Notes under the pieces: generated by a model
Seen by the model: only the letters and a program-made list of their open reading frames with translations
Told to the model about the DNA's origin: nothing
The model's database searches: none
IMG/VR virus record: IMGVR_UViG_3300035678_000001
Reading direction: 5' to 3' (one strand)
Origin: a virus
Lineage: Duplodnaviria > Heunggongvirae > Uroviricota > Caudoviricetes
Length of the DNA stretch: 64,000 nt
Program-made: the position numbers and the translations under genes
Shown: positions 9,068 to 28,056 of the stretch, piece after piece
How positions within the stretch are numbered: the first letter of the stretch is position 1
Layout of the letters: each line of letters starts with the position of its first letter

Positions 9068-9355
9068 CTACTCGGGCGCTGCGGCGGGCTGGGGCATCTC
9101 GGCGTCAGGCTGCGGCTGGTGGGCGTCGATGGTCATGTTCACGACCTCCGCGTCCACGCTGTCGGGCTTGACGTAGAGGTTCGCCGGGTTGGTCGGAGAG
9201 GTCGGCACGTCGTAGCGGTGACCGACGAGGTAGCAGCCGAAGCCGTCCGGGTTGCCCAGCGCGGTCTTCAACTCGTCGGCCAACTGCGCGTAGTTCACCG
9301 GCTTGATGACCTCGAACATGGCCTCACCCTCGGCGGGCGCTGCGGGCTGCGTCAT
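9068..9355 (-). CDS. Hypothetical protein
   Basis: ATGA overlap with the stop of 9352..12306. Confidence 0.6.
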   Translation of the reverse strand: MTQPAAPAEGEAMFEVIKPVNYAQLADELKTALGNPDGFGCYLVGHRYDVPTSPTNPANLYVKPDSVDAEVVNMTIDAHQPQPDAEMPQPAAAPE

Positions 9356-12306
9356 GCCATCCACTCCTCATCGTCGTCGTCCAGAGAAGCCAGGCTGGCT
9401 TCGAGGGCTTCGTAGTGCGTACCAGCGATGTCGAGCCGGTCGAGGTTGGAGGCAACCACGTCCGCGCCCTCGCTGATGATCTGGGCCTGCTCGCCCGGCG
9501 TGAAGGTCTTCATCGCCATCTTGGCGAGCGCCTCCTTGGCCGCTGCCGCGATGTCGCTGCTGTCCTGTCCACCGCCGCCCTGCAAGTGCCCGGCGCTGCG
9601 CTGGAAGGCCGCGACGATCTGGTCCGTGCTCTGGGCGAGCAGCAGATCCTTCTCGGCCTCGGGGCGGGGCGCGCTGACCCGGCCCTCGCTCGTCATGTCC
9701 TCGTTCAGGTGCAGTTCAGGATCGGAGTCCGTCTCGCTGCCGGGGGTGCCGTCCGTCTCCGGCAGCGCAGCCTCGGGCTCGGGGTGGAACTCGGCCACCG
9801 ACTCCAAGTCGGCCAGCGCCGTCAGGGTGTCGGGCTCGAACATCGACTCGTCCATGTCCAGCGAGCCCATGCGACCGAAGGGGCTCTGCTGGCCCCAGCC
9901 AGCCGGGTCTTCGCCGGAGGCCCAGCCAGCACTGGCCGGGTTCTCCACGGGACGGTGGACGCCCGCGCCGCCGGGGTTCATGACGGCGGGGTGGTCGAGC
10001 ATCGGGTCTTCGCCAGGCTGGTCGAGTTCCATCGGCGGCGTCCACACCGGGGCAGCCGTCTTGGCCGCTCCGGCGCTCATGCTGCCGCCAGCGTCACCGC
10101 CCCCTGTGGAGCCCGTACCAGCGTCCCCAGCACCACCGGAGGCGTCAGCCTGGCCGGTGCCCTGGCAGTGCCCACAGCCACCGCCAGCGCACTGACTGCA
10201 CAGCCCGACGAGCCCGCCGTAGCCCCAGCCGGGACCGTAGGCGTGCGGGTGGCCGTGGTGCTTGTGGTGCTTCTTGTGGTGGCCCTTGGCCTCCTTGGCG
10301 AAGCCACCGCAGTCGCAGCCCGCCGCCGAGCACTTGCCGGTGTCGTTCTTGTGCAGCCCCTCGGGGTGGCCGCAGTGCTTGCACGGCATCTGGTCGCCAG
10401 CGGCCATGTGGAACCACGACTGGCCGTCGATCCCGGCAGCCGTCAGGGCCAGCACGATCTCGGCTGGCTCGACATCCGTCTCCATCGCCTCGATGACCAG
10501 CGTGGTGACCGGGCTCGCCTCGACCGGCACGAGCGAGGCGCGGTAGGTGCGGTTCACGTCGCGCTTGCGCGGCTGGGCCGGGCGGGACACGTTCTTCTGG
10601 TCATCCCGGTCGTACTCGGTGACGACGCGGGTGCGCGGGCGCAGCCACTCGGGCGCCTTCTGGTCCTCGGTGATCGAGCCACCGAACATGCCCCGGCTCT
10701 GGGCCTCGTACTGCAAGGCCAGGGCGTGCGAGCACATCCGGCCCTCGTACCGCTTCCAGCGACCGGAGCGACCCCACGAGTAGGCCGACCACTTGCAGCC
10801 GCAGTGCCACATGGCGATGGACTGCTGGCCGGGGACGCGCTGGATCTCCGTCTCGTAGACGTGGTGCTCGCCCTTGACGTTGGCCGCGATGGTGTTGTCA
10901 CCGACCGCGATCACGTTGACGTTGCCCTCGGCGCGCAGCCGCTTGGCCTTCGCTCGCACGTCCGACCACGAGGCCGTGATGTGGAAGCGGAAGTCGTCGT
11001 CGGTGGCCGCGACGACGAGCATCCGGTACGGCGACTCGATCAGTGCCGCGTACTTCTCCGGGTGCTTGGACATCTGCCCGCCACAGAGCAAGCACTCCGA
11101 CCCAGGTGAGGCATCTCGGTGCGCGTACCCGCAGTCCTTGCAGGTGGCGCCCATCGCCGGGTTGTGCTCGGTCGGTGAGTCTGGGGCGGGCATGACAGAG
11201 GCGGTCTTGGACGAGAACTTCGTCGGACCGTGCGGGTTGGTGTCGAGCAGGTTCTTGACGTGCGGGTTGTCGCCCATGATCGCGTCGATCTGCGAGGCCA
11301 CGTCGCCCACGTGCTCGGGGTTGCGCTCGTGGTGCTCGTGCCCGGCAGAGGTCCAGTTGCAGCCACCACGGGGGCAGCGCGCCTCGGCGTGCATCTCGTC
11401 GTGGTCGTGGTGCGGGGCACCCCAGCGGCGCAGCGTGGAGATGGCGTCGTCGGGCACGTCGTGCTCGCGGGAGAGGTGGTGGAGCACCTTCTCCTCGGGG
11501 ACGTACTCGTCCACCGGCTCGCGGGTCGGGTGGATCTGGTGGGCCTCCGGCAGCGGGTGTGGCCCACCCGTGGCGCCAGAGTCGGGGAAGTGCTTGTTGA
11601 ACCGCTCGTGGAAGTCCGAGCCCACCATGTCCGGGCCACCGCCGTGGCCGGGGTCGTGCCAGACGTTCGGGTAGTAGCCCGCGTCGTCCATCGCGTGGTG
11701 GAGGTGGTGCTCGGCCTCGGAGTAGGTGTCGTGCGCGCCGAGGTGCTTGCCGTCGAGCGAGGTGTGGTACTTGCCCCGGTCGGCGGTGATGAAGGCGTCG
11801 GACTCGTCCGGGTGGTCCACGTGCTCGGGGGTCGAGTGGGCACCGGACGAGCAGATCTCGCAGTGGCCGTGGGCCGGGTCAGGCATCCCCGGCAGGGCGT
11901 CCTGCTCGTCCTCGTGGTCCCAGTCGTCGTGCTCCTCGCCGGGCGTCAGGTGGGCCACACGAGAGGCCAGCACCGTATTGGGCGCGATGTCCGGGCGCTC
12001 CACGAGGATCTCGGACAACTCGGGGTAGTCCTGCGCCGCCGTGTTCTCCAAGGAGGCCGTGGACTCGGCACGGGCGCTCAACTGGCCGCTCGTGTAGAGC
12101 CCGCCGCCCATGCCGTTGTCGAGGGTGACCTCGTACGCCTCGTTGCCCGCGTGCGGCCCGTCCTGCACCGCTGTGACCACGCCAGGGAAGCCGTCGATGG
12201 TCATGACGGCCTGGCCGGGCTTGAAGTCCCACCAGAGCGTCGAGTCCACAGCGACCTTCGAGGCAGCAACCGACTGGTGTCGTGCCTCGCGTCGTCCGAG
12301 CGTCAT
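9352..12306 (-). CDS. 984-aa mosaic protein: N-terminal SH3/Tudor-like barrel, His-rich modules, SWIM-type zinc finger, acidic tail
   Basis: WHCGCKW...GRMCSHALAL (CxC...CxH SWIM pattern); several CxxC pairs; AGGAGG RBS after the late motif. Confidence 0.7.
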   Translation of the reverse strand: MTLGRREARHQSVAASKVAVDSTLWWDFKPGQAVMTIDGFPGVVTAVQDGPHAGNEAYEVTLDNGMGGGLYTSGQLSARAESTASLENTAAQDYPELSEILVERPDIAPNTVLASRVAHLTPGEEHDDWDHEDEQDALPGMPDPAHGHCEICSSGAHSTPEHVDHPDESDAFITADRGKYHTSLDGKHLGAHDTYSEAEHHLHHAMDDAGYYPNVWHDPGHGGGPDMVGSDFHERFNKHFPDSGATGGPHPLPEAHQIHPTREPVDEYVPEEKVLHHLSREHDVPDDAISTLRRWGAPHHDHDEMHAEARCPRGGCNWTSAGHEHHERNPEHVGDVASQIDAIMGDNPHVKNLLDTNPHGPTKFSSKTASVMPAPDSPTEHNPAMGATCKDCGYAHRDASPGSECLLCGGQMSKHPEKYAALIESPYRMLVVAATDDDFRFHITASWSDVRAKAKRLRAEGNVNVIAVGDNTIAANVKGEHHVYETEIQRVPGQQSIAMWHCGCKWSAYSWGRSGRWKRYEGRMCSHALALQYEAQSRGMFGGSITEDQKAPEWLRPRTRVVTEYDRDDQKNVSRPAQPRKRDVNRTYRASLVPVEASPVTTLVIEAMETDVEPAEIVLALTAAGIDGQSWFHMAAGDQMPCKHCGHPEGLHKNDTGKCSAAGCDCGGFAKEAKGHHKKHHKHHGHPHAYGPGWGYGGLVGLCSQCAGGGCGHCQGTGQADASGGAGDAGTGSTGGGDAGGSMSAGAAKTAAPVWTPPMELDQPGEDPMLDHPAVMNPGGAGVHRPVENPASAGWASGEDPAGWGQQSPFGRMGSLDMDESMFEPDTLTALADLESVAEFHPEPEAALPETDGTPGSETDSDPELHLNEDMTSEGRVSAPRPEAEKDLLLAQSTDQIVAAFQRSAGHLQGGGGQDSSDIAAAAKEALAKMAMKTFTPGEQAQIISEGADVVASNLDRLDIAGTHYEALEASLASLDDDDEEWMA

Positions 12307-12325
12307 TCGACCTCCTGTGGGGCTC

Positions 12326-12337
12326 TCACCCCTTCAC
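12326..12337 (-). promoter_or_regulatory. GTGAAGGGGTGA motif copy
   Basis: Exact 12-mer upstream of the 984-aa gene. Confidence 0.7.
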
Positions 12338-12342
12338 AGGCG

Positions 12343-12558
12343 TCAGGCTGGATCCGACAGGACCGGGCTCGGCTTCTCCGACGAGTGGGTGCCGTACTCG
12401 CGGGACTGGCGCTGCATCGGGATCACGTTGTCGGGCACCAGCAGCACCTTCGAGACGCAGCCCTGGCAGTAGAGCAGGCAGCCGACTTGGTAGGCGTACA
12501 TGCCGGGCGTCAGGGTCATCCCACAGCCCGGCTTGGCGCAGGTGTCGTCCAGTCGCAT
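12343..12558 (-). CDS. Small zinc-finger protein
   Basis: CxxxxC...YCxxC; GGGAGG RBS immediately after the late motif. Confidence 0.65.
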   Translation of the reverse strand: MRLDDTCAKPGCGMTLTPGMYAYQVGCLLYCQGCVSKVLLVPDNVIPMQRQSREYGTHSSEKPSPVLSDPA

Positions 12559-12568
12559 GATGCCTCCC

Positions 12569-12580
12569 TCACCCCTTCAC
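12569..12580 (-). promoter_or_regulatory. GTGAAGGGGTGA motif copy
   Basis: Exact 12-mer downstream of the portal gene, before the RBS of 12343..12558. Confidence 0.7.
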
Positions 12581-12632
12581 AGGAGCGGGGACGAACCGGA
12601 CAGTGTTACTGCCGGGTAACCGCCCGAAGGTG

Positions 12633-14780
12633 CTACCCGGCCTCGGCGTCCTTCTCGTCGCGCTGGCGCTCCTCCTCGCGGATGGCCTCGGTCAGGTGGA
12701 CGCGCATCCCGATGTGCTTGGGGTTGCCGAACCGGCCTGTGGGGCGCCGGTCGGCGGGTGCCTCGCCCTCGTCCTGCATCTTGGTCACCTCGTCCATGAC
12801 GAAGTTCTCGGAGGCCACCTTGCGCATCCGGCTGGCACCTCGGTACAGGGCTGCTGGCTTGGGCATCGAGTCGCGCATCTCGTCGCTCTCCGGGGGTCGC
12901 TGGGCGCCGGGCATCGGGATGATCTGCGCCCCAGCGGTCGGGTCCACCGCCATCGGCTGGCCGGTGTTGGGGTCCACGTTCTGGTCGTCCTCGCCGTTGC
13001 CGGGCATCGGCGTCAGGTTGGGCGTGTTCATCGGGTCCACGCCGAGCATCGGGATCTGTCCCTGCTCGGCAGCCTGCTGGGCGTCGAGCGCCTGGGCAGC
13101 CTTAGGCTCGAAGTCGTCCTTCAAGTCCTGCGGGATCGGCAGACCGGCAGCACGCAGGGCCAGGAAGGTGCCCTTGCGCGTCTCCTGCTCCTTGACGGCG
13201 CGCTGGATGTTCTCGTCCTTGACCTGCTCGATCTCGTCCTCGAACTCGATGGGGACGTTGATGAGGCGCGTCTTGATCGACACCGGCACGCCACCCTGCA
13301 CGAGGGCTTCGAGGAACTGGCGCTCGCTCTCCTCGTCGGAGATCGACATGGACTTCATGTGCATGTCGGGGATGAGCAACTTGGGCTGCTCAACGATGCG
13401 CTCCTCGCCCGTCTCCTCGTCAATCTCAAGCACTTCCTCCATCTTCACGTACCGCTTGCCGCCGCGAACGTCGAAGTCGAAGTGCTCCTGCGCCTCGGCC
13501 ACGACCAGTGCGCGGTCGCGGTAGTGGCTCTTGACGATGTTCTGGTACGTGGTGAGCAACTGCGAGATCAGGTCGCGGTTGAGGGCGTCGGCGGCGTACG
13601 TCTCGCCACCGCTCGCGCCGGAGAGCATCGTCTTGGACAGACCGAAGGTCTGCAAGATCCGCTCCTCAAGGCGGTCGAAGTCGTCGCCCATGTTCGGCAT
13701 GTTCTCCCGACCGAAGACGGGAGCCATGTCCACGGCGAAGTGGTGGACCAGCACGCGGAAGTCCGCAGCGAGTGCGCCGTCGAGCGCCTCCTCGAAGTCC
13801 GCGAGGTCATCCTGCGTGGGGATCCACGGCACCGTGGTGCCAAGGTCGGTTGCGCTGGCACCCAACTTCGCCAGGATCAGCGGGGTGTAGAGACGATCCG
13901 CGATGGCGTCCATCGCGCTGTTCATCATCTCCTCCTGCATCACGGCGCGGAACGCACGCATGAGGATCGGGATGCCGCGCTTGTGGAACGTGTCGCCCTT
14001 GAACTTGAACTGCTTGAGCAGCACGTTGCTGACCGGCATCAGCGAGTCTTCGGAGGCGTAGTGCTGCAACTCCGGGTACGCCGCCATCAACTTCTCGTAC
14101 TCCCAGCGCGGCGACTGCTTCTGGATCAGGTCGCGCAGCGTCTGCGGGAGGTGGATGAGGTAGCGCGGGTCGCGCATGAACGGGCTGCGCTCCACCTCGC
14201 AGTCGTCGGGGTTGAGCAACTCGTCGTCCTCCCAGACGCCGAGCACCTCGTTGAAGGAGCCGAACGGCCACGCCTCCCCGACCATCCAGTATTCGCGCCC
14301 GAAGTCGATCAGGAACTCGTTGTAGTTCAGGCCGTTCTGCTCATCGAAGAACAGGTTGGTGTAGAACTCCGTGATCTGCTCGTCCTTGCACGTCAACTCC
14401 ATGCCGAGCAGCGGGTACTTCGAGTAGATGTCGATGCACGACGCGATGATCGGGTGCGTCATGTAGAGGATCCGGCAGTAGGCACGGATCTTCTTGAGTT
14501 CCTCCTCCTTGCTGATGTCCCAGGGGAGGTTGTTCTGGCGCCAGTAGAACATCGGGTCGCGGGGGCGCCCGGTGGCGAACGACAGGTCAGCACCACCACG
14601 GCCCGGTGCGTTGCCGGTCTTCTCCATCGCACGGGCGAGCCGCTGGTTGACCGCACGGTTGCGGCCCATCTCGCCCACCAGCGGGTCTTGCTCGGCGGCG
14701 GCAGCACGGCGACGGAACGGGTTCATCCCGCCCAGTCGCTTGTGGACCTCGGCGTCGTACGGGTTGGTCGGGGTGGTCAC
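12633..14780 (-). CDS. Portal protein
   Basis: 715 aa; HPIIASCIDIY helix, GEAWPF, LLNPDDC, RGIPILMRAFR and LILAKLG segments match the general portal pattern; long acidic/Pro C-tail. Confidence 0.75.
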   Translation of the reverse strand: MTTPTNPYDAEVHKRLGGMNPFRRRAAAAEQDPLVGEMGRNRAVNQRLARAMEKTGNAPGRGGADLSFATGRPRDPMFYWRQNNLPWDISKEEELKKIRAYCRILYMTHPIIASCIDIYSKYPLLGMELTCKDEQITEFYTNLFFDEQNGLNYNEFLIDFGREYWMVGEAWPFGSFNEVLGVWEDDELLNPDDCEVERSPFMRDPRYLIHLPQTLRDLIQKQSPRWEYEKLMAAYPELQHYASEDSLMPVSNVLLKQFKFKGDTFHKRGIPILMRAFRAVMQEEMMNSAMDAIADRLYTPLILAKLGASATDLGTTVPWIPTQDDLADFEEALDGALAADFRVLVHHFAVDMAPVFGRENMPNMGDDFDRLEERILQTFGLSKTMLSGASGGETYAADALNRDLISQLLTTYQNIVKSHYRDRALVVAEAQEHFDFDVRGGKRYVKMEEVLEIDEETGEERIVEQPKLLIPDMHMKSMSISDEESERQFLEALVQGGVPVSIKTRLINVPIEFEDEIEQVKDENIQRAVKEQETRKGTFLALRAAGLPIPQDLKDDFEPKAAQALDAQQAAEQGQIPMLGVDPMNTPNLTPMPGNGEDDQNVDPNTGQPMAVDPTAGAQIIPMPGAQRPPESDEMRDSMPKPAALYRGASRMRKVASENFVMDEVTKMQDEGEAPADRRPTGRFGNPKHIGMRVHLTEAIREEERQRDEKDAEAG

Positions 14781-15121
14781 GCCGAGTCCTCCTTGTAAGC
14801 CCTCATGGCGATGGCTCGCACGAGGTTGCCGAACTCACGACGGGCCTCCCAAGGGAGGTTGCCGCCATGCGCTGCCATCAGCGACAGCATCACGTTGACG
14901 TTCGCGGCACACGTGCCGCACAGCCACACCGACCCAGGGACCGTAGCGCCCAACTGCTCGATGAGTCCGCCCTTCGCCACGACGTACTCCGAGACGAGCA
15001 TGGGCTGCGGGCTGTGGAACTTGGCGCCCTCGCACGACACAGGGCTCTCGGCCAGGATGCCGGGCAGCACGAGTCCGCCCACCTCCGCGATGAGCCGAGC
15101 GACCGTGTGAGGGACGGCCAC
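14777..15121 (-). CDS. Hypothetical protein upstream of portal (LCGTC motif)
   Basis: GTG overlaps the TAG of the upstream gene; 3' part of the listed 14777..15487 frame. Confidence 0.65.
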   Translation of the reverse strand: MAVPHTVARLIAEVGGLVLPGILAESPVSCEGAKFHSPQPMLVSEYVVAKGGLIEQLGATVPGSVWLCGTCAANVNVMLSLMAAHGGNLPWEARREFGNLVRAIAMRAYKEDSA

Positions 15122-17112
15122 TACGGGGCCAGGTTCTCGGCGCGGACCTGCACGAGCACGCCAGGGTCGCGGTCGCTGACCTTGAGCGCGAGGTGCTTGA
15201 TGAACGAGTCCTCGTCCAGCACGGCACCACTCTCGGTGCGGTAGGCGCCCTTGAGCCACGGCGGCTGGTTGTTCGGGCCAGGAGGACCAGCGAAGGACGC
15301 CGGGTCGCCGTCGCCCATCTGGCTCGGGTCCATCGGGGCGTTGGGATCGCTGACGGCGTTGGGGTCGTTCTGCTGGACCTGGCCGGGCATCCCAGGCACG
15401 TCCACCGGGGCGCCGTCGATGGTCTGCGGGAAGGCCGAGAACTCCGGCTGCACCTGCACCGTGAACGACGTGTGGCAGAAGTCGCACTCGATGGTGCGGT
15501 CGCTGCGCGCCACGACCTGACCGGAGCCGCAGAACGGGCAGTGGTAGATCGTCTCGCCGTCGCCGGAGTCGTGGGCCACCTTGGTGAGCCCGGCCTCGAT
15601 CTGCACGCGAGCCTGACGCAGCAGTGCCAGTCCGGCCTCTCGCGCATCCTCGGGTGTCAGGTTGGCTCGGACGAAGTGCTCGCCCGTGTCGTCCTGCGCG
15701 TTCATGGCGATGGTCTTCATGGCGTGGTGCCCTTCACTCGGCGGCTCGTAGTTGTGGCTCATGCCCTCGCCCGCCGCACAGGCGAGGCAGTCACTCGGGT
15801 GGTGGTTTCGGCTGTCCGGGTGGGGCTCGTGCGAGTGGTCCTCGTTCATGACGCCGCTCTCGTGCGCCCGCTCGTGGACTTCGTTGAGGGCGTCGTCGGA
15901 CATGTGGTACGAGCGGTGGATTCCGTGGTCCTCGGCCAGGTGTCGATGGCGCCAGTCGTGCTGCTGCTCGTGGTCAGCGTTGAGGCCACCGTTGTGCTGA
16001 CCACCGCCGACCTCTTGCAGGTCACCACCGTGATGGGTGACGTGCATCTGCGCAGCCTCGTTGACCGACATGCTGCCGGGGATCTCGTAGCCGTGGTGCT
16101 GCGACAGGTGCGTCTGCAACTCCGTCCGGCGCTGCGGAGTGTTGGGGTTCTCGTACTGGGCCGGGGTGCGATGCCGGTGGCCTGTCCCCGTCGAGCCGTG
16201 ACCCCACGAGTTGTTGAAGTATTCGCTGTGGTCGGAGGCGTGGAAGATGCCCTCGTCGTTCGAGAGCGGCTGGCCGGGACGGTCGCGGCGCTCCAACGAG
16301 AACGAGTGCTGGTGGTCGGGTGACTCCTGGGAGTGGATCATCCGGTGCAGGTCACGTAGCGGAGCGCCTGCTCGGCGCATGTTGTCGAGCGTGCCGTCGT
16401 CGTGGTAGCCGTGGCCGTGCGGCTCGGGATCCATCATGTGCCCGTGCAACTGGCTCTCGTTGCCGTACTCGTGCAGATCGCTGTCGTGGCCCTCGCGGCT
16501 CGGGTGGTTGGCGGGCAAGTTCTCGTGGACGCGGTTGTCGCGCTCGCGCATCCGCTTGAGGTAGTCGTCCAGTCCCTCGCCCGGCAGCGGCACCTCGTCC
16601 TCGTGCGGCGCCTGGTTGCGTGGCGCCTTGTCCATCTCCTCGGCGTGGTCGAACGCCTTGTGGATGTGCGGGTGCAGCGACTTGGGCATGTCGTCGGGGC
16701 GGTCCAGTGCGATGTCCTTGCCGAACCGCTCGGGGTACTCGCTCTCGCCGTCAGGTGAGTCGATGCGGACCTCGTGACGGCCACCAGGGCGACCTGGCGG
16801 CACGACGTGGATCGAGTGCCCTGTCGGGTGCTCGTGGACCACCGTGTCGTTGTAGTGCAGCCCGTTGCCACCGGCCTCGTCGTAGTGGTGGTTGTGCGTC
16901 TCGGGCGCCGACATGTCGGCGTACTCCAACGCACGCCGGTCGTTCTCGCGGTTGTACGGGACGTGGGTGTCACTGGGCTCGTGCAGGTGACGACCCTCGC
17001 CGTAGGTGCCTGTCATCTGGTCGCGCCCGACCCAGCCCTCACCCATGCTGGCAGGGCGAATCGCCCGCTCGCAGTGACGACACGTGTGGTCGTAGTCCAT
17101 GTCGTCAGGCAT
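15121..17112 (-). CDS. His-rich mosaic protein with C-terminal zinc ribbon
   Basis: YHCPFCGSGQVVARSDRTIECDFC zinc ribbon; repeated HLxxxHG modules. Confidence 0.75.
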   Translation of the reverse strand: MPDDMDYDHTCRHCERAIRPASMGEGWVGRDQMTGTYGEGRHLHEPSDTHVPYNRENDRRALEYADMSAPETHNHHYDEAGGNGLHYNDTVVHEHPTGHSIHVVPPGRPGGRHEVRIDSPDGESEYPERFGKDIALDRPDDMPKSLHPHIHKAFDHAEEMDKAPRNQAPHEDEVPLPGEGLDDYLKRMRERDNRVHENLPANHPSREGHDSDLHEYGNESQLHGHMMDPEPHGHGYHDDGTLDNMRRAGAPLRDLHRMIHSQESPDHQHSFSLERRDRPGQPLSNDEGIFHASDHSEYFNNSWGHGSTGTGHRHRTPAQYENPNTPQRRTELQTHLSQHHGYEIPGSMSVNEAAQMHVTHHGGDLQEVGGGQHNGGLNADHEQQHDWRHRHLAEDHGIHRSYHMSDDALNEVHERAHESGVMNEDHSHEPHPDSRNHHPSDCLACAAGEGMSHNYEPPSEGHHAMKTIAMNAQDDTGEHFVRANLTPEDAREAGLALLRQARVQIEAGLTKVAHDSGDGETIYHCPFCGSGQVVARSDRTIECDFCHTSFTVQVQPEFSAFPQTIDGAPVDVPGMPGQVQQNDPNAVSDPNAPMDPSQMGDGDPASFAGPPGPNNQPPWLKGAYRTESGAVLDEDSFIKHLALKVSDRDPGVLVQVRAENLAP

Positions 17113-20100
17113 CGTCGTCCCGCGCCTTCTCCATCATCCGCTTGAACATCTCGTGGGCCTTGCGCTCTGACTCCATGTCCGCAGGCACCCGGCGCAGGTC
17201 GTCGGTGATGTCCTTCTGCTCGGCCATCTGCCCGAACACGTCGGCGTAGTGCTCGGCGTGCTGCTGGGTGTGGGCGATGGCGTTGTTGACGTGCTTGAGC
17301 ACGTGCAGTGGCGGACGCGGGTGCGTCACGCCGTACTGGTCCACCCGGCGCTCGCCAGCCTCCCAGGGCTGGTTCTCGCCAGACGGGGCGTGCTTGAAGT
17401 TGAAGCGAGCACCCGTGTCGGCGTGGTGCAGCACCACGTCCTGATGCACCTTGGCGCCGTAGCCCTCGCGCAGGTCACGGGAGGGCTCGCAGTGCTCGAC
17501 GTGGACCGACCAGCCCGAGTGCGGTGCGCGCCACCACAGCGTCGGCTGCATCGGGTCTTCACCGCGAGGCGTCTCTCCTCGGGCGTTCATGCTCTGGCGC
17601 AGCGGCGTGAAGTGCATCGTGTCGTGCGGCAGGTGCCAGTTGCGCGGCGGGTGCTCGGTCTGGGCGTAGAGCCGGTCGGTGCAGACATCGCACGCCTGGT
17701 CCGACATCTTCCACTCGGACCCGTCCGTCTTCTTGTAGCCGCCGAGCGGGTAGGTGCCCTCGCGGGTGTGGCAGATCGCGCACGTGCGCACGGCCTTGCG
17801 CGGGACGTACTCGCCTTCGCTGTTGGGCTCACCGACGCGGCGGCGGAACTCATCGAACTTCTCGCCGGGACGCGGGCCGTACTTCTCCTTGTCCACGCCG
17901 TCGCCGTAGATGTCCCAGTGCTCACCGTCGCCCTTGGCTGCCGACTTGGAGCCGGTGCTCTCGATGAAGTCCACGTCCTTCTGCGGGATGTCCTCGGCGG
18001 TCGGGTACGACTTGGACCGAGCCCGGTGCGTCTTGACGAAGAAGCCGTCGTCGTCCTTGTCGAGGCTGACGCCCTTGAAGCGGTCGTCCTTGGACGCGGT
18101 GTAGCCACGGCGCTGCTGCCAGCGCGGGATGCGCGGATCGTGGTGCTCGGCGTCAGCACCGTGGTCCTGCACCCAGGCGTGCAACTCCCGGTGCAGATCC
18201 TCATGACCGAAGCCAGCGGGCTTCTCGCCCTTGGTGAAGAAGTCGCCCTCGGTGCCACCGTGGATACCCACGAGGTCGTGCGCCATCTCGCCGGTCGCTG
18301 CGTGGTAGATGTGGATGTTGTTGCCGCCGTAGTCGCGAGCCTTGTAGCCGGACGGGTGGCTGACCTCGTAGTACGGCTGCCCCTCACCGTCGCCCTCGTG
18401 CTCGTGGTCGTCGGCGCCGAAGCGACCAGGCGTCAGCGGGTGGTGCGTGCCGCCCTCGTAGCGGTGCCCGAGGTCGTTGAGGCGCTCGGTGTGCCGCTCG
18501 GTCTGACGCGACTCCGGCGTGCCACCGGGGTCGAGAATGTCCATCGTGCTGTTGAAGATCTGCTCACCGATCTGCCTGCCAACCTGCTTGCTGCGCTGAC
18601 GCCCCTCGGCGTAGTCGCGGCGCTCCTCGGCGGTGTGCTGGTGCTCCATGCCCTCGCGACCGCCGAAGTCGGTGAGCCGACCCTGGTTGTCAGCGACGTG
18701 GTACTTGCCGGTCTGGGCGTGCTGGATGACCTTGTACGGCCCGTGGTACTCGTCGCTCGGTGACGGGTCGTGGAACGCGCCAGGGCGGTCGTACTCCTCC
18801 GGCGTGGCCCGGCGGTAGGTCGTGCCGTGCTCGCGGCTGCTGGTGTCCGTGACGATCTTCGGCGGTAGCACGCGGGGCGCAGGCTGGTGCCGAGCCCGGT
18901 TGCGGTACATCTCGTCGCGAGGGTCTTCGGTCGAGTGCTCGAACGGTGGCGCGGGCGCGTGGAACTGGACGTGCTGGGTGTCCACGTGCTGGGCGTCTTC
19001 GAGCGGCTCACCCTTGCGACGGGCCTTCTCGGTGCCCGGCAAGATCAGGCCACGGCCCATGTGGTTGCGCAGCGACAGGCCCGTCTCGGGCACCTCGTTG
19101 CCCTCACGGTCCTGCCACTTGGGGATGTGGCCGTGGTCTTGGTTCGCAGCCGTCCAGTCGTTGACGGCGCGGCTCTCGGCGTTCTGGTCATGCCGCTCGT
19201 ACGACGGGTGGCCGGGCGTCGAGTAGGAGTGGACCAGCCGGTTCTGGTTGTCCACCAACTGGTACGCCCGCGTCTCGGGGTGCCGGGTGATGTGCCAGGG
19301 TCCGTGGCCCTCCTGCTTGGGCTCGACACCGTGGTGGGCCATCACCGGGTCGTACGGCGCCTTCGGGCCAGGGTGCGCCCAGAAGTCGTCGGTCTGCGAC
19401 TCCTCGTTGAGGTAGCCGCCCGGCAACTTGGCCTCGCTGGCTGTCTTGCGGGACGAGCCCTTGAAGATGTCGTTGATCGAGTTCTTGAGGTCGTCGTCCA
19501 CACCGTCGTTGTGCCAGATCGCCTTGGAGTGGTCGCCCTCGACGCCAGAGCGGTGCATCGGCATCGCCCGGTCGTGCAACTTGAGCAGCGTGTCGGTCGT
19601 GCCGACGATGTGGCTCACCTTGCCGCTGTCCCAGAGCAGCGAGTCGCCCACGTCGAGCCGGGTGCGCCCAGACGGGTGCTTGACCGGGTAGCCGGGAGTG
19701 TGGGTGATGCGCTCGCCGGAGTAGATGGGACGGTGGACCCATTCAGCCGTGCGCACGAACGACAGCGGACCAGGCAGCCGAGGCTGGTGGCCCTGCACCG
19801 TGTCGTCGTGGTGCCGGTTGTCCCGAGGGTTGTTGCAGTCCACGCACTGGCTGGGGTCGTCCGGGTGCGGCGTGAACGGGTGCAGCGGCATCTGCAACGG
19901 GCGCGGCTTCGGCTTGAAGGCTGACGTGCTCGGCGTGAAGCGCGAGTGCTCGTGCTCGATGCCGTGGCCCTGCCGCTCGCGCTGACGGGTGCGCTCGGGG
20001 TTGCGGTTGTGCTCGCGGTGCTCGCTCTCGTGCAGCGACAGCACGCGCTCCGGCGACAGCCCGGCGACCATCTCGGGAGCGAACCCGTGATCCTGCTCCA

Positions 20101-20971
20101 TGTGCCCAGCCGGGTTGCTGTGGTGGTCGATCAGGAAGTCGGCATAGCGGTCGTCACCGACGACCTTGCCGCCCTCGCTGGGGGCGTAGGAGCCACCGTC
20201 GAACGGGTGCCCGCCAGTCCAGTCCTCGAACGGCACGGTGCCCTCGTTGTGGGCCGTCTTGAAGGCGTCGTTGATCGAGTCGCGGGTGCAGGCGATGCAG
20301 GTGCCGTCCTGCTTGTCGCGGGCTCGCCAGCCGTAGATCGGACGGTGCTGCGTGTTGCTCTCGTCCGACGCATCGAGCATCTTCTGGTTCACGTCATCGA
20401 GGTCGTGCCGCAACTTCCAGAGGTGGTCATCGCACAGCGCGATGGGCGGCTTGGCCTCGGTCTGACGGGCGTGCTGGTGGCCGGTGTGGACGTAGACGGT
20501 GACGTGGTGGACCTGCTGCGCTGTCTTGGACGACAGGTGGCTCGGCCCCTCGCCCTGGTGGTTGAGCAGCCAGGCGTCGGGGTGGTTCGCCAGGGCGTCG
20601 TTGATGACCTTCTCGGCGGACTGGTAGTCGGGGTGGCCGGGGTCGAGGTGCGGCGGATCCATGTGCTCGGCCTTGGTGTGCTCGGGCTCGTGATCGACGC
20701 ACCAGGGGTTGTCGCAGGGCTCGTCCCCTTCGGTCGGCTCGGTGTAGCCGCAGGACATGCACTGGCCGTGCAGGTTGTGGACGGTGTTGTGGTCGCACTC
20801 GTTCGGGTCGCGGGACAGCCCGGCTGTCGCAGCGATGTCCGTGCCGGGCCGGTAGCGCCCGCTGGGGGCGTCTACGTCCTTGGCGCAGGTCTGGCACCAC
20901 AACTGGCGCCCGCGACGGACACGAGGGCGTCCAGCAGCCATCGTGGCGTCACACCGCTGGCACTTACGCAA
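17105..20971 (-). CDS. 1288-aa His/Cys-rich mosaic protein
   Basis: Long uninterrupted ORF with phage-like codon use; many small CxxC and His modules separated by KTA-type linkers. Confidence 0.8.
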   Translation of the reverse strand: MRKCQRCDATMAAGRPRVRRGRQLWCQTCAKDVDAPSGRYRPGTDIAATAGLSRDPNECDHNTVHNLHGQCMSCGYTEPTEGDEPCDNPWCVDHEPEHTKAEHMDPPHLDPGHPDYQSAEKVINDALANHPDAWLLNHQGEGPSHLSSKTAQQVHHVTVYVHTGHQHARQTEAKPPIALCDDHLWKLRHDLDDVNQKMLDASDESNTQHRPIYGWRARDKQDGTCIACTRDSINDAFKTAHNEGTVPFEDWTGGHPFDGGSYAPSEGGKVVGDDRYADFLIDHHSNPAGHMEQDHGFAPEMVAGLSPERVLSLHESEHREHNRNPERTRQRERQGHGIEHEHSRFTPSTSAFKPKPRPLQMPLHPFTPHPDDPSQCVDCNNPRDNRHHDDTVQGHQPRLPGPLSFVRTAEWVHRPIYSGERITHTPGYPVKHPSGRTRLDVGDSLLWDSGKVSHIVGTTDTLLKLHDRAMPMHRSGVEGDHSKAIWHNDGVDDDLKNSINDIFKGSSRKTASEAKLPGGYLNEESQTDDFWAHPGPKAPYDPVMAHHGVEPKQEGHGPWHITRHPETRAYQLVDNQNRLVHSYSTPGHPSYERHDQNAESRAVNDWTAANQDHGHIPKWQDREGNEVPETGLSLRNHMGRGLILPGTEKARRKGEPLEDAQHVDTQHVQFHAPAPPFEHSTEDPRDEMYRNRARHQPAPRVLPPKIVTDTSSREHGTTYRRATPEEYDRPGAFHDPSPSDEYHGPYKVIQHAQTGKYHVADNQGRLTDFGGREGMEHQHTAEERRDYAEGRQRSKQVGRQIGEQIFNSTMDILDPGGTPESRQTERHTERLNDLGHRYEGGTHHPLTPGRFGADDHEHEGDGEGQPYYEVSHPSGYKARDYGGNNIHIYHAATGEMAHDLVGIHGGTEGDFFTKGEKPAGFGHEDLHRELHAWVQDHGADAEHHDPRIPRWQQRRGYTASKDDRFKGVSLDKDDDGFFVKTHRARSKSYPTAEDIPQKDVDFIESTGSKSAAKGDGEHWDIYGDGVDKEKYGPRPGEKFDEFRRRVGEPNSEGEYVPRKAVRTCAICHTREGTYPLGGYKKTDGSEWKMSDQACDVCTDRLYAQTEHPPRNWHLPHDTMHFTPLRQSMNARGETPRGEDPMQPTLWWRAPHSGWSVHVEHCEPSRDLREGYGAKVHQDVVLHHADTGARFNFKHAPSGENQPWEAGERRVDQYGVTHPRPPLHVLKHVNNAIAHTQQHAEHYADVFGQMAEQKDITDDLRRVPADMESERKAHEMFKRMMEKARDDDA

Positions 20972-21101: not shown

Positions 21102-21111
21102 GACTGCCTCC

Positions 21112-21123
21112 TCACCCCTTCAC
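21112..21123 (-). promoter_or_regulatory. GTGAAGGGGTGA motif copy
   Basis: Exact 12-mer in the gap after the ParB-like gene. Confidence 0.7.
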
Positions 21124-21150
21124 AGGGTCCATCGCGGGCTGGACAGGAGG

Positions 21151-21693: not shown

Positions 21694-21695
21694 GG

Positions 21696-22190
21696 CTAGT
21701 CCTCGACGCCGAAGGCATCCCGGAGCAGGACGGAGGACGCCAGGGAGATCAGGCGCTCCCCGGCCTCCTCACCGAGTTGGGCGGCGCAGGCGCGGATCGC
21801 CGGGTCTTGCCGAAGCCGGGCCTGGATGAGCCCCAGAGCGTCCTGGGCGATCTCCCCGAAGCCGTCGAGACGCCCCTCGGCTGCCAGGGCGTTGAGCACC
21901 CCGACCTCGCCCTCCTCGTCGTACGCCGCGAGCACGCCGGTCGCCTCGATGACGCCCACGTCGAGGGAGTCGTCCAGCCCGTCGTCCACCACGTTGGCCT
22001 GCTTGCCGAGCACTGCGATGTCGTACTGGTCGAGCAGCACGATGGCGCCCGTGGCCGAGCCAGTCGAGACGAGCACGTGGGCCGACCGCTGGTCGGACTG
22101 CACGACCGTGCCCTGGTCACCCATCACCAGGGTGTGGTCATCGCAGGCCGGGCCGATGTACGACACCTTCTGGCCCTCGTGTGCGGTCAT
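21696..22190 (-). CDS. Hypothetical protein (N-terminal SH3-like barrel, helical C-terminus)
   Basis: Coupled ORF (ATGA). Confidence 0.65.
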   Translation of the reverse strand: MTAHEGQKVSYIGPACDDHTLVMGDQGTVVQSDQRSAHVLVSTGSATGAIVLLDQYDIAVLGKQANVVDDGLDDSLDVGVIEATGVLAAYDEEGEVGVLNALAAEGRLDGFGEIAQDALGLIQARLRQDPAIRACAAQLGEEAGERLISLASSVLLRDAFGVED

Positions 22191-24319: not shown

Positions 24320-26038
24320 CTACTCGCCCGGCGGGATCTTGGTGTCGGTCGCCTCGGGACCAGGCTGCGGCGTGTTGCTGCCACCAGGCATCTGGCGCGG
24401 CTTGGTCGTCAGCGAGCCACCACCGGGCTCACCCGGTACGCCGTCGTTGGGCAGGCCACCAGCGAGGTTCTGGGTGGCCGGGTTCTTGTCGTCGTCCTGG
24501 GCACCGTCATAGGCGTTGTCCTTGCCACCAGGCGACTTGAACGGGTTGTCGTCGGTGTAGGGGTTGGCCTGCGTCGAGAGCGAGCCCTGCTTGCCGAGCC
24601 CGTCCTTGATCGCACGAGTGATCGTCTCCCGCAGCGACGGGGAGGCCCACTGCACGGCGCTCGGGTCGGTCCAGTGGCCCTGCTGCGCCATCTGGTGGGC
24701 GTGCTCGTACGCCTCCTTCTTCCAGCAGCCCTCGCAGACGGGCGTGTAGGCGCCGTCCAACTTGTCGGGCTTGGCGCCACCGCAGTCCTGGCACGGCTGG
24801 CCCGTCCACGATGCCTCGCGAGCGAGACGGTTGTGGCACTGCGGGCACTCGACGGGACGGCCATCGGACTGCCACTGGTGGCCGCAGCGGGCGCACGTCA
24901 TCTGACGAGCGGCACCCTTGGCGAACGGGTTGTCGCTGTCGTCGGCGGGCGGCGCGTTGGGGTCGGCATCCGGGTCGGCGTCGGGGTCAGCATCGGGGTC
25001 CACGTCGCCGCCACCGTTCTCGGCCACCGTGCCCTTCTGCACCGTGACGCCCTCGGGGTCAGCATCGAAGACACCAGCGTCGATGGCATCCGAGGCGTCG
25101 GCCTTGCTGGCGTACGGGCCACCGATGTCGAGGTTGGAGTCCTCGTCCAGCACGTAGTAGCCGGGGCTCGGAGCGACCGCGTTGGGGTCGTCGTCGTCCT
25201 GGCCGTCGCCGTCCATGTCGGCCTGCTGGTCGTCGTCGCCGTCCGAGGGCGGGAAGCCCGCGACGTGGACGATGGCGAGACGCCGGACCTTCGCGTTCAG
25301 GGCTCCGAAGTGGTGGAAGAACGGCACGTCACCCTGCACCTTGGGGTCGTTCTCCAACAGGTGCTCGTCCTCGCGGTCGGGGTAGCCATGCTGGCCGGGC
25401 TGGGCCTTCACCCGAGCCCAGAACCCCTTCTTGCCCTCGTGCTCGGAGTCGCCCATGAAGTGCTGGACGAAGACGCGAGAGCCGACAGGGTGGACGGTCG
25501 GCTCGTAGCCAGCCGTCTTGGCCGTCTTGTGGGGCTCGCTGATCTCGTCGTGGCACGTGCCGCAGTGCTCGCCCTCGGCAGGCACCTCGTCGGACTCGAA
25601 GACAGGGTGGACATCGTTGCCCTCGCTGTCCTTGCCGTGGACCTCGCCGTCAGCGTTCTTGCCGAACCGCTTCTCGGCGCAGCGAGGGCAGTGCATGTCG
25701 GCGTCGTAGGTGTACGCCCGCACATCCCACGCCTTGGCGGCGCTATGGGAGAAAGGGGGCGGCTCCGGTGCGGCAGCAGCCCGCGCCTCGGCCACCAAGT
25801 CCCAGTCGGCCTTGAGTGCCTGCGCGAGAGCCACCGTGGTGATGCCAGCGGCCTCGGCAGCGAGGGTGATCTTCTCCTCGGCCAGTGCCTCGCGGTGGAC
25901 GTACTCCCGCTCGGTCTGCGCGCCAGCGAGGAAGGGCAGGAACCCCATGCACGCGGCCTTCGCCATCGCGAGGGCGTGGTCGTCGGCGGCTACTTGCGCA
26001 GCATCACCAGCGCCATCCCACAGGCTCGTGAACTCCAT
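24320..26038 (-). CDS. Mosaic head-associated protein (Zn fingers, SH3-like barrel, DADP repeats)
   Basis: ATG at 26038 overlaps the upstream TGA, with AGGAG RBS; the listed 26446 start is unlikely. Confidence 0.7.
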   Translation of the reverse strand: MEFTSLWDGAGDAAQVAADDHALAMAKAACMGFLPFLAGAQTEREYVHREALAEEKITLAAEAAGITTVALAQALKADWDLVAEARAAAAPEPPPFSHSAAKAWDVRAYTYDADMHCPRCAEKRFGKNADGEVHGKDSEGNDVHPVFESDEVPAEGEHCGTCHDEISEPHKTAKTAGYEPTVHPVGSRVFVQHFMGDSEHEGKKGFWARVKAQPGQHGYPDREDEHLLENDPKVQGDVPFFHHFGALNAKVRRLAIVHVAGFPPSDGDDDQQADMDGDGQDDDDPNAVAPSPGYYVLDEDSNLDIGGPYASKADASDAIDAGVFDADPEGVTVQKGTVAENGGGDVDPDADPDADPDADPNAPPADDSDNPFAKGAARQMTCARCGHQWQSDGRPVECPQCHNRLAREASWTGQPCQDCGGAKPDKLDGAYTPVCEGCWKKEAYEHAHQMAQQGHWTDPSAVQWASPSLRETITRAIKDGLGKQGSLSTQANPYTDDNPFKSPGGKDNAYDGAQDDDKNPATQNLAGGLPNDGVPGEPGGGSLTTKPRQMPGGSNTPQPGPEATDTKIPPGE

Positions 26039-28056
26039 CAGGACTCCTCCTTGTTGACGGCGAGCAGTCCGGCCTGCACCTGCTGGCGGAAGGCGCTCAT
26101 GGCGGGCGTCAGCGACAGGTTCGGCGCCGACGTGAGGGTGGGCTCCTGGCCCTGCTTGCTCGGGTCCACCCACTCGGGGTCGGGAGCGACCGGGGAGGAG
26201 TACGGCGGGGCGCCGTTGTACGGGGCGCTGCCGCCGGGGGCTGCCGGGTCCATGCCGCCAGCGAGCGGCGGGACGGTGCCGGGGCCGTTGAACGGCGTGT
26301 TGACGGTCGGGCTGGACGAGCCGTCCATCGTGTCGAGGTCCACCGAGGTCGCGGCCTGCTTGGCAGCCGTGAAGGCCCGGTGCAGGGCGATCCGCCGGGT
26401 GAACTGCGGATCCTTCTCGCCCCACTTCTCGTGGTCGGCCAGCCATGCCTGCTTGGCCGCGAGCGAGTCGTTGTCCATCATCCCGGCGTAGAGCCCGGAC
26501 TCGAACTCGACCGACCCGGTGGTGACCAGGCGGGTGCCCGGCTTCCAGCGGGCGGCGAAGCGGTAGCCCTTGCGGAACTCCTTGGACTGCAAGGTCGCCT
26601 CGCTGACGATGCCTGCGTGGCGCTTCATCGTGGCCTCGGTGACGAGCCCAGCAGTGACGCCCGCGTCGTTGCCCTTGGTGCGGTCCTGGCTGACCGAAGG
26701 CGGCACGTCGTTGCGCTGCTGCACGAGCGGCTGCGAGGAGTAGCCCTGCACGTAGCCCTGCACGTACGGGTCCACACCACTGCTGGCGTCGGCGTACGTC
26801 GGACGGGCGTTGGGGTCGGCAGCGTCGGCAGCACCAGCGGCGCGACCGGCGTTGAAGTCGCCGTTCGGCGCCACCGGGTAGTCGCTGGCGTTGTCCTGCA
26901 CCGACTGGCCGGGCACGGCGTGCGGGGCGTCACCGCCACCGAACATGTCGGCCTCCTTGCGCTGCGCGTAGGCAGGCAGCACCTGGGTGTTGCCGACCTC
27001 CATCGACTTGTCCAGCGGGGCATCGCGGTTGGTCACGAGCCGGGGAGGCAGTGCCTCGTCCGGGAACGCGACCTCCTCGGGGAGGGGGGTCGGAGACGGG
27101 TTGCCGTCCACGTCCACTGCCTGCTGGATCTGCGGCAGTCCCGAGTTGGCGACCGTGCGGGTCACGCGGGCCACGACGGTCCGGGTGCCCGGCGCGGGCC
27201 GGGCCTCAACGAAAGGGCGCGGCTCCGGCTGGGCCGCAGCCGTCTTGGCTGCGCGCTGCTCGGCCACGAACTGGTCGAGGTCCATGACGTGGTTGACCGC
27301 CACCGAGGGGTAGTCCACCAGCGAGCCCTCGGTCGCCAGCGAGGCGCCGACGTTCATGCCGGAGCCACCGCCAGCGGGCTGCGAGGGGGCGTCCCAGCGG
27401 TGACCGCCAGGGACATCGGGTGCGCCCTGGCCGTTGCCCTCCTGCAAGATCTCGTTGAGCAGCGGCGCGTTGTAGGACGACTGCATCTCGTCCACGCCCT
27501 GGTTCTCGGGAGCGACCGGCTCCTCGAAGGTGTCGAACGTCTCCGTGGGGAGCGGCGTCGTCTTCGGGTTGTTGTTCGGGTCCACCGTCTGCTGGATCTG
27601 GTCCAGCCCGGACGCGGCCTCGCGGCGGTGCAGGAACGCCACGTAGTCGAGGAACGCCTGCTCGGCCTCGGGAGCCTGCTCGCCGTAGGCACCGGCCACG
27701 CGGCGGGCCTGGCCCTTGGCCTGCTCGTTGAACTCGTCCTCGTCGCTCTTGACGAACGACGACGTGCGACCGAACCAGAGGCTGGCCTCGGCCATCACGG
27801 CGGTGTGGGCGACCTGCGGGTCCGAGGTCGTGGCGACCTCATCGAGCCAGTCGGTGCTGGCCGTGTGCATCTCGTGGACGCGCACCGGCTGCAACGTCTG
27901 CTCGACCACCGCGTTCGCGAGGTCCACGTCGCGGGACGCGGCGACCTGACGGGCGCGGTCGTTGCGCAGCGCGTCCAACTCGGTGACGAGTGCGGCCTGC
28001 TCCTTGAACGTGGATGCGGCTGCGATCTCCCGCAGCAGTGTGGCTTCGGTCTTCAC
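26038..28056 (-). CDS. Head-associated/scaffold-like protein with internal SGLxQIQQxVD repeat
   Basis: GTG at 28056 overlaps the upstream TGA, with GGAGG RBS; helical N-terminus and Pro/Gly-rich segments. Confidence 0.7.
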   Translation of the reverse strand: MKTEATLLREIAAASTFKEQAALVTELDALRNDRARQVAASRDVDLANAVVEQTLQPVRVHEMHTASTDWLDEVATTSDPQVAHTAVMAEASLWFGRTSSFVKSDEDEFNEQAKGQARRVAGAYGEQAPEAEQAFLDYVAFLHRREAASGLDQIQQTVDPNNNPKTTPLPTETFDTFEEPVAPENQGVDEMQSSYNAPLLNEILQEGNGQGAPDVPGGHRWDAPSQPAGGGSGMNVGASLATEGSLVDYPSVAVNHVMDLDQFVAEQRAAKTAAAQPEPRPFVEARPAPGTRTVVARVTRTVANSGLPQIQQAVDVDGNPSPTPLPEEVAFPDEALPPRLVTNRDAPLDKSMEVGNTQVLPAYAQRKEADMFGGGDAPHAVPGQSVQDNASDYPVAPNGDFNAGRAAGAADAADPNARPTYADASSGVDPYVQGYVQGYSSQPLVQQRNDVPPSVSQDRTKGNDAGVTAGLVTEATMKRHAGIVSEATLQSKEFRKGYRFAARWKPGTRLVTTGSVEFESGLYAGMMDNDSLAAKQAWLADHEKWGEKDPQFTRRIALHRAFTAAKQAATSVDLDTMDGSSSPTVNTPFNGPGTVPPLAGGMDPAAPGGSAPYNGAPPYSSPVAPDPEWVDPSKQGQEPTLTSAPNLSLTPAMSAFRQQVQAGLLAVNKEES

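Follow-up and report, generated by a model that had tools for sequence, protein, structure and literature searches.

The window analysed here is a 64,000-nucleotide stretch of DNA from IMG/VR virus record IMGVR_UViG_3300035678_000001, a member of the Caudoviricetes and a soil actinophage. Its G+C content is 67%, and the minus strand carries all credible genes. Around the portal gene, and again at a distant position near the other end of the window, it encodes seven very large proteins (hereafter, the giants), and the subject of this text is a tripeptide, Lys/Arg-Thr-Ala ([KR]TA), and its possible role in the processing of these proteins. A sequence-only reading of the window had described them as strings of small modules joined by K-T-A or, more broadly, [KR]-x-A linkers, and had proposed that these linkers are maturation cleavage sites. 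The protein sizes on which it was based (984, 663, 1288, 710, 572 and 672 amino acids (aa)) were found, and each of its 11 exact K-T-A sites was found in the protein to which it had been assigned. The giants, the portal gene, the tripeptides and a late-gene motif are located as follows (residue numbers in parentheses; ORF, open reading frame).

9352..12306, minus strand: giant P0001, 984 aa, a mosaic protein encoded directly downstream of the portal gene; KTA at 11200-11208 (367) and 10054-10062 (749); positional variants KVA at 12250-12258 (17, in the N-terminal leader), RSA at 9592-9600 and KMA at 9514-9522
12326..12337, minus strand: late-gene motif GTGAAGGGGTGA, one of seven exact copies, the other six exact matches being at 1443, 1813, 12569, 21112, 28959 and 63305
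12633..14780, minus strand: portal protein (phrog_2833, E 1e-151); KVA at 12813-12821, minus strand (654), corresponding to the aligned K-[TVI]-A
15121..17112, minus strand: P0002, His-rich late protein, 663 aa, no KTA; KVA at 15574-15582 (511), aligned to K-[VFML]-[AS] ahead of HDSGD
17105..20971, minus strand: giant P0003, 1288 aa (or 1265 aa); KTA at 20519-20527 (149), 20252-20260 (238) and 19439-19447 (509); KSA at 17939-17947 (1009), aligned to RTA of P0068
22187..24319, minus strand: P0004, His-rich late protein, 710 aa, with Zn-ribbon motifs and no KTA
24320..26038, minus strand: P0005, late protein, 572 aa; tandem KTAKTA at 25511-25528 (171-176), immediately after a CxxC Zn-ribbon
26038..28056, minus strand: P0006, late protein, 672 aa; KTA at 27238-27246 (271), followed by a Pro-rich linker; KQA at 26353-26361 (566), aligned to the 'MSLV-RTA-'/'MNLY-RLA-' N-terminal leaders of a separate gene in relatives
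60876..63287, minus strand: P0008, polyvalent late protein, 803 aa (P0007, an 810-aa ORF, from 63308); KTA at 62517-62525, 62286-62294 and 62031-62039 (262, 339 and 424 of the 810-aa ORF); KQA ahead of the 2H domain at 61401-61409; KKA in the N-terminal leader at 63267-63275

His makes up 6.5% of the seven giants, as compared with 3.1% of the other genes, and Asp and Pro are also high. The giants are full of CxxC...CxxC zinc-ribbon-like mini-modules, several of which adjoin a KTA, and P0004 shows weak similarity to P0002 and P0003, a His-rich similarity that the three proteins have in common. P0001 comprises an N-terminal module of ~108 aa, which is a separate gene in the relatives L002 and L004, a SWIM-type Zn module (about residues 430-545), a Gly-rich linker and a conserved C-terminal segment. 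In the case of P0002, conservation is limited to the C-terminal ~170 aa, a Zn-ribbon module for which several relatives have a separate protein of 206 aa. P0008 consists of a nucleotidyltransferase (NTase)-like domain, Cys-rich modules and a 2H phosphoesterase, the latter supported by Pfam matches. Two or more unrelated effector-type domains are therefore present in one polypeptide in P0007/P0008 (NTase-like and 2H), as they are in relatives of P0001 with ParB and NUDIX domains. No peptidase family was detected in the seven window giants with Pfam or PHROGs.

When one mismatch is allowed, the late-gene motif GTGAAGGGGTGA has 8 matches in the window, against 0.37 expected, and its copies precede the transcription units of every giant considered here, including that of the distant 803-aa gene. 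Thus, all KTA-rich giants are located in late transcription units, and the polyvalent-type genes have a late or virion location, flanking the portal gene and lying behind late-gene motifs. The copy at 63305-63316 overlaps the GTG at 63308 from which the longest ORF (810 aa) would start, and hence 63287, the start of the public call (P0008, 803 aa), is the likelier start of this gene. The public gene call at 20971 is also later than the longest ORF (1265 aa, P0066, versus 1288).

Is the tripeptide more frequent than the composition of these proteins would predict? Expected counts were derived from the composition of each protein. The seven giants contain 11 KTA against 1.08 expected (Poisson p 2.2e-8), which makes KTA the top-ranked of all tripeptides, with a p value that survives Bonferroni correction over 8000 tripeptides, and none of 3000 within-protein shuffles reached 11. 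Over all 84 called genes, KTA occurs 17 times (3.3 expected). The KTA sites are encoded by nine codon combinations, and 17 of the 18 coding-strand matches to AAGACNGC are in frame, showing that selection acts on the peptide and not on the DNA; the other strand has almost no matches, and a DNA-level motif was ruled out on these grounds. The enrichment anticipated by the sequence-only reading was thereby borne out for the exact tripeptide, and not for its degenerate form: [KR]-x-A occurs 70 times against 50.6 (1.4-fold, p 0.006), falling to 58 against 47.8 (p 0.08) when KTA is left out, and for RTA the giants of the window show no enrichment (1 versus 1.7 expected). The same reading had also placed a KTA in the terminase large subunit and in one tail protein. 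This was not confirmed, as the KTA-bearing genes other than the giants match no terminase or tail family; they are the following.

63534-63965: KTA-bearing gene
56072-56725: KTA-bearing gene
9068-9364: KTA-bearing gene
3701-4219: KTA-bearing gene

Related phages were tested without a prior, by asking which tripeptide is most over-represented, and [KR]TA ranked first or near the top in the head-region giants of five other lineages, so that the expected conservation in homologues held up. In soil relatives found through their portal, TAA (42 versus 8.5) and RTA (30 versus 4.8) lead in the giants downstream of the portal. In Mycobacterium phage Mangeria, gp83, gp88, gp96, gp97, gp105 and gp106, taken together with gp89 and the portal, contain 17 [KR]TA against 3.7, mostly as [KR]TAG, whereas its other proteins (13 thousand aa, all tail proteins included) contain 5 against 8.0 expected. 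RTA ranks first in the head giants of Gordonia phage Stormageddon, with 13 against 1.45 (p 5e-9) and 2 against 1.5 in neighbouring proteins, and Phrappuccino gave 10 against 2.5 expected. Bacillus phage G, an AT-rich phage with homologous portal, protease and capsid proteins, also has KTA in first place in gp2-gp28 (11 versus 1.9, p 6e-6), the 11 sites lying in gp2-gp21, and gp1 and gp29-57 (4.7 thousand aa) contain none. Furthermore, in G001, a complete relative of 155 kb, the genome as a whole has no excess (37 versus 30), the surplus being located in the head region. Since the signal is replicated in other lineages, with background levels elsewhere, composition does not explain it. These comparisons support the view that, in six lineages, the motif is restricted to proteins that are late, polyvalent or encoded in the head region. 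We found no published description of such a motif, and the literature on Bxz1-type phages yielded neither a mention of KTA sites nor virion proteomics or processing data.

If [KR]TA delimits modules, it should be found at their edges. The 803-aa protein has 57 homologues, and because their architectures are so varied (NUDIX, GNAT, ParB, PARP, Arr, ART-PolyVal and 2H), we take them to be polyvalent proteins in the sense of PMC5512222. In these 57 proteins, KTA is enriched 5-fold and RTA 3-fold; KSA, RSA and KVA are not enriched. As a proxy for module edges we used the endpoints of all-against-all BLAST alignments (high-scoring segment pairs) within 12 aa: the endpoint fraction was 0.102 at [KR]TA and 0.025 at random positions, and about 0.01-0.05 at composition-matched control tripeptides, with [KR]QA as a partial exception. 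Alignments begin at offsets of 0 to +12 from the K/R and end at -3 to -30, which indicates the layout module, short variable linker, [KR]TA, next module. P0003 provides examples. Its module at residues 55-148 terminates at KTA149; the module starting at KTA509 aligns from KTA705 of P0068 and from KTA636 of P0067; KSA1009 corresponds to the RTA joint of P0068, whose adjoining modules have a different order; and the C-terminal module is internal, and bracketed by KTA, in P0069. Protein termini of one phage therefore coincide with KTA joints of another. An exhaustive phmmer search with the KTA-bracketed Cys/His module of P0003 (residues 149-243) returned the self match only and is uninformative on free-standing copies. 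An AlphaFold2 model of the 803-aa protein has confident domains at residues 11-253 and about 635-803. KTA255-257 lies one residue past the last helix of the first of these, KQA627-629 lies at the end of the low-confidence linker ahead of the second, and KKA5-7 lies within a disordered leader. The expected match between motifs and predicted domain boundaries was accordingly found for KTA255 and KQA627; KTA332 and KTA417 fall in an unmodelled region.

A preference for module joints could arise without any processing, if the tripeptide were a structural N-cap or linker element inherited by module families, or a relic of module-shuffling recombination. A conserved helix, '[IV]ND.FKTA', closes some of the modules, implying that part of the signal is shared ancestry, and homologous sets inflate the counts. 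The 93 distinct site contexts are nevertheless unrelated, save that the motif tends to be followed by A, S or G and, in a subset, is preceded by an L-T-x-L-F element. The K/R and codon variation excludes a DNA joint, and the motif is top-ranked in phage G as well, in very different proteins with a very different base composition. Moreover, there is no structural rationale for the motif in leaders of 4-10 residues or after a protease domain, both of which are described below. We therefore consider this explanation improbable.

The head-maturation protease of phage G is gp19 (PMC12484599). No protease is annotated in Mangeria. The first ~230 residues of its gp97 are homologous to gp19, and so are the N-termini of the giants that the relatives G001-G003 encode at the corresponding place (E 1e-24 to 1e-28), immediately ahead of the genes for cement and capsid proteins. 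The domain has a conserved Ser in 'SMG' and a conserved His in 'VNH', and homologues of the protease number 643. The equivalent protein of Stormageddon, gp13, is annotated as a capsid maturation protease, and the gp19-type domain matches phrog_18299 'head maturation protease' with E values down to 5e-24 in relatives. Inside the window, no gene for the protease, cement or major capsid protein (MCP) was found by tblastn or with a family hidden Markov model in all six frames. The gene map of the window phage shows, a few kb beyond the window start, a 1047-aa gene, then a Phage_cement_3 gene and a 328-aa gene. P0123, the phage's own 1047-aa protein, consists of a gp19-type domain followed by '...GLASTAS-KTA-SESHEW' (KTA229), and through this protein the window phage encodes a head-maturation protease. 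In the protease family, a [KR]TA follows the protease domain in 69 of 120 members, at a median of 18 aa, and most of the others have K-A-A or K-V-A. The ORF of G001 ends 30 aa past its RTA, and elsewhere 550-1150 more residues follow. A [KR]TA after the protease domain is in the position expected for self-release. A second conserved site, [KR]-x-A-[AH], is present just N-terminal of the protease core; it is KTA in gp19 of phage G (L023; residue 43), RTA in L003 and RNA, RVA or RYA in others, and is possibly an N-terminal self-processing site. A Protein Data Bank profile search with the protease domain found nothing, and there was no match to PF03420 (the T4 gp21 family), a search in which the positive controls were equally silent.

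Tripeptides similar to the motif also occur in capsid and portal proteins. In six phages, the capsid protein has a variable leader of 13-20 residues before a conserved SD[DE]YV, and these leaders end in R-F-A, R-V-A, R-T-A, K-Q-A, R-V-A or R-Y-A. The portal has a conserved K-[TVI]-A ~60 aa from its C-terminus, after an invariant RPPESDE..MPKPA block. In the case of phage G, the capsid protein loses part of its N-terminus, going from 282 to 255 aa, as was demonstrated by N-terminal sequencing (PMC5646251, Table 1); a mass of 28.2 kDa, calculated for residues 28-282, agrees with this, placing the cut at EGRVALA/QAMA. This cut shows that the protease of the lineage is active and accepts Ala at P1 with a basic residue nearby. 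Cleavage at the [KR]TA sites themselves is an unproven prediction from comparative analysis; if the capsid cut of phage G is a guide, the scissile bond would probably be the one that follows the Ala.

The sites might be cut by another protease or at another time, for example by a host protease, or by the phage protease after ejection so as to free effectors. In favour of this, the literature on polyvalent proteins proposes proteolytic activation after delivery (PMC5512222), and the 803-aa polyvalent gene is located 46 kb from the head module. The motif, on the other hand, tracks the gp19-type protease across hosts as diverse as Bacillus/Lysinibacillus, Mycobacterium, Gordonia and Streptomyces, which speaks against a host enzyme; it also marks the boundary of that protease itself, and occurs in capsid and portal termini. 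We give little credence to another enzyme or another time.

Variants of the tripeptide were judged by alignment. A KTA or RTA is present at the aligned homologue position for KQA634, KKA12, KVA17, KVA511, KSA1009, KQA566, RSA903 and KMA929 of the window; RSA and KMA of P0001 are matched by RTA and KTA in relatives and in Mangeria gp96. Ahead of the conserved 'AWDPISN' segment, every relative has K-[T/A/Q/E]-A at the joint (KTA749 in P0001). At such positions K and R are swapped, as are T, Q, E, A and V, while the flanks diverge; the aligned variants thus show that K/R and A are fixed and that T is preferred. Only those variants that align to [KR]TA in homologues (KQA634, KKA12, KVA17, KVA511, KSA1009 and KQA566) appear credible as sites, and the degenerate pattern cannot be recognised as a site where such alignment support is lacking.

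Leaders of the form M-x(4-10)-[KR]TA are found in many head and polyvalent proteins, including gp13 and gp20 of phage G. They resemble the capsid-targeting sequences of T4, and this raises the alternative that [KR]TA and the L-T-x-L-F-like context preceding it serve for head targeting or docking and not for cleavage: protease, scaffold or portal would bind them and so draw modules into the prohead, and any processing would take place elsewhere. That the phage G MCP is not cut directly at its [KR]-x-A, and that the motif is limited to head proteins, would fit a docking signal too. Docking, however, would require neither up to six repeats per protein, nor their precise placement between modules, nor a mark at the C-terminal boundary of the protease domain. 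It should also be noted that the T4 targeting sequence itself ends in a protease site, so that the docking explanation largely merges with cleavage by the head-maturation protease. Docking as such seems unlikely to us. The repetition at joints, the co-occurrence with the protease irrespective of host, and the short leaders are all fitted less well by the three alternatives than by cleavage of the giants at [KR]TA.

Based on these data, we consider it fairly probable that the giants are polyproteins and that [KR]TA is the recognition and cleavage site of the head-maturation protease of the lineage. The giants around the portal and the 803-aa polyvalent protein would be strings of small, independently shuffled modules, whose short linkers would have Lys/Arg-Thr-Ala at their ends, with Ala, Ser or Gly as the usual next residue. 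The protease would be the homologue of phage G gp19, a domain resembling serine proteases (phrog_18299) and located at the N-terminus of another giant. During prohead maturation, it may free itself at its own C-terminal [KR]TA, remove the short leaders (M-x4-10-[KR]TA) from protein N-termini and divide the polyproteins into pieces of module size, which would be retained in the head, and some of which would probably be ejected into the host. The enrichment, the action at the peptide level, the restriction to head and late proteins, the placement at joints, the conservation across the lineage and the presence and location of the protease are established by the analysis; cleavage, packaging and injection are what we infer. 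The original proposal of maturation sites is partly supported, by the joints, the restriction to head and late proteins, the protease boundary and the leaders, for [KR]TA and not for [KR]-x-A at large.

Several observations weigh against cleavage of the giants at [KR]TA. As regards the motif, two window giants, P0002 (15121-17112) and P0004 (22187-24319), do not contain KTA, and KTA332 and KTA417 of P0008 are in the middle third of the protein, which AlphaFold2 could not model. Flank hydrophobicity does not set the sites apart, the giants being uniformly low in hydrophobic residues. Furthermore, some instances lie inside domains, for example in the ParB core DGHH-RTA-AA and in Y-R-T-x-S-G, where x is variable. 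As regards the protease, its gene is not in the window, PF04586 was not detected in four genomes although its controls gave matches, and the match of the protease to PF14550 is sub-threshold (E 0.094). The AlphaFold2 model of the protease domain, made from 5 sequences, has a mean confidence score (pLDDT) of 33 and leaves the fold unconfirmed, and the agreement between the K/R of the protease's own site and that of the downstream sites is only a trend (odds ratio 2.5, p 0.12). As regards the capsid, the tripeptide of most MCPs is some other [KR]-x-A than [KR]TA, RTA being present in G002 only, and the sole mapped cut in the lineage, that of the phage G MCP, is two residues past R-V-A and not at a KTA.

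In addition, three candidate instances were examined and set aside. The ParB 'DGHHRTA' was regarded as an in-domain coincidence. The 'YRT[AREV]SG' C-terminus of a protein family encoded upstream of the portal was rejected, its x being variable. The third, a 613-aa late protein at 1830-3671 (minus strand), has no family match and contains six RTA, five of them in the first 180 residues; it shows an apparent degenerate repeat, '..RTA[ST].[SD]..', and has a 64-aa segment in common with 28053-28943. This protein has the look of a repeat protein and was not counted as motif evidence.

How does this putative system relate to known ones? Like the T4 gp21 system, with its L/I-x-E sites, it would combine a head-maturation protease with a three-residue motif and self-processing of the protease, and, as in T4 IPI-III, short leaders end in the motif on proteins that would be packed into the head and ejected. 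It differs from T4 gp21 in having basic-Thr-Ala instead of hydrophobic-x-Glu and multi-module substrates with several internal sites, and in that cleavage is predicted here; no homology to S77 was detected, in a search whose controls were silent. Herpesvirus assemblin, which acts at x-A/S sites, and the HK97-type S78 enzymes are likewise serine proteases of capsid maturation; they liberate themselves from a larger precursor, and their cuts fall between an Ala and a small residue that follows it. Membership of the lineage's protease in this group is unconfirmed, given the undetected PF04586 and the E value of 0.094 for PF14550.

As in phiKZ (gp175) and SPN3US (gp245), whose proteases act at S/A/G-x-E (PMC10052503, PMC5694885), there are many large head-internal proteins with a short motif, often at several sites, and in those large myoviruses, too, it was the recurrence of sites in head proteins that first revealed the motif. 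The lineage, the protease family and the motif differ, and the evidence there came from mass spectrometry, whereas here it comes from comparative sequence analysis. What sets the present case apart from both the T4 and the phiKZ systems is that the protease is one domain of a would-be polyprotein and that the site seems to be the boundary of freely shuffled cassettes.

For polyvalent proteins, packaging and injection have been predicted and proteolytic release has been proposed (Iyer et al. 2017, PMC5512222). The proteins described here resemble them in that NTase, 2H, NUDIX, GNAT, ParB, ART and Zn-ribbon modules are reshuffled beside virion genes (PMC5512222). That work proposes embedded zincin-like or other peptidases and no site motif (PMC5512222); in the window giants no such peptidase was found, and what we propose instead is a defined junction motif tied to the head-maturation protease. 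The closest experimental parallel is phage G, with gp19 and gp27 (PMC5646251; PMC12484599): its protease, portal and MCP are homologous, KTA is enriched in its head region, and removal of 27 N-terminal residues from its MCP, with Ala at P1, has been demonstrated by experiment. It differs in that the mapped cut is RVALA/Q and not [KR]TA, and in that the protease is a separate protein of 300 aa and not part of a giant fusion.

More tentatively, phage G, the Bxz1-type phages, the Gordonia phages and the ~155-kb Streptomyces-associated phages might build their head-internal proteome on an RNA-virus-like polyprotein logic, in which dozens of small modules (effectors, zinc-ribbons and enzymes) move from gene to gene as cassettes delimited by [KR]-T-A, the protease is one of the cassettes, and gene boundaries and cleavage sites are interchangeable in evolution. 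If cleavage at [KR]TA is true, it would provide a specificity rule for the head-maturation protease of a large and mostly unannotated lineage, to which >200 sequenced Cluster C mycobacteriophages belong, as does the largest phage in culture. It would allow hundreds of giant 'hypothetical proteins' to be parsed into mature functional units, and yield a catalogue of modules that are likely packaged into the head and possibly injected (NTase, 2H, NUDIX, ParB, ART, GNAT and Zn-ribbons), with relevance for anti-defence. It would also show how modules can be shuffled independently of gene boundaries. Members of the lineage that grow in culture make the prediction testable.

The portal has 39.5% identity to those of Cluster C (Bixzunavirus) mycobacteriophages, with those of Gordonia, Rhodococcus and Bacillus phages being more distant. 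Proteins near-identical to those of the window are carried by contigs of 153.9 kb, and related contigs of ~150-156 kb are present in soil metagenomes and in Streptomyces and Kitasatospora assemblies. Homologues of the protease giant found on contigs of ~150-157 kb in Streptomyces/Kitasatospora assemblies are P0132, P0136, P0150, P0154, P0165, P0168, P0176, P0179, P0184 and P0187. This suggests that Streptomyces and Kitasatospora are hosts of the group and that the phages are carried in cultures; no isolate belonging to this Streptomyces/Kitasatospora-associated group was found in the phage collection searched.

At 26038, where P0006 stops and P0005 starts, the genes are partitioned differently from those of relatives. 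The tail of P0006 and the head of P0005 form a single gene in L005, L006, L011, L013 and L016, and P0006 also takes in what is a separate upstream gene in these five. The P0006/P0005 gene boundary was considered as a motif-equivalent joint and rejected, the relatives reading '...EET-MTVDLW...' there. In the portal-downstream giant of another relative, L003:12997-17073, the SWIM zinc-finger module is interrupted by an insertion of ~450 aa (columns about 1100-1590 of alignment A2), which P0001 of the window does not have. The insertion is intein-like: it starts with 'CFLPDAPV...', contains a LAGLIDADG-like 'LAYWLGWYTAEGF' and ends in '...VHN' directly before 'CGC'. Finally, on the gene map of the 153,872-bp contig, the stretch from the window start to the 1047-aa protease giant has genes for a 229-aa protein with a response-regulator receiver domain and for one protein each with DUF1003 and DUF6011, and an fn3-domain protein (283 aa) follows the MCP-sized gene.

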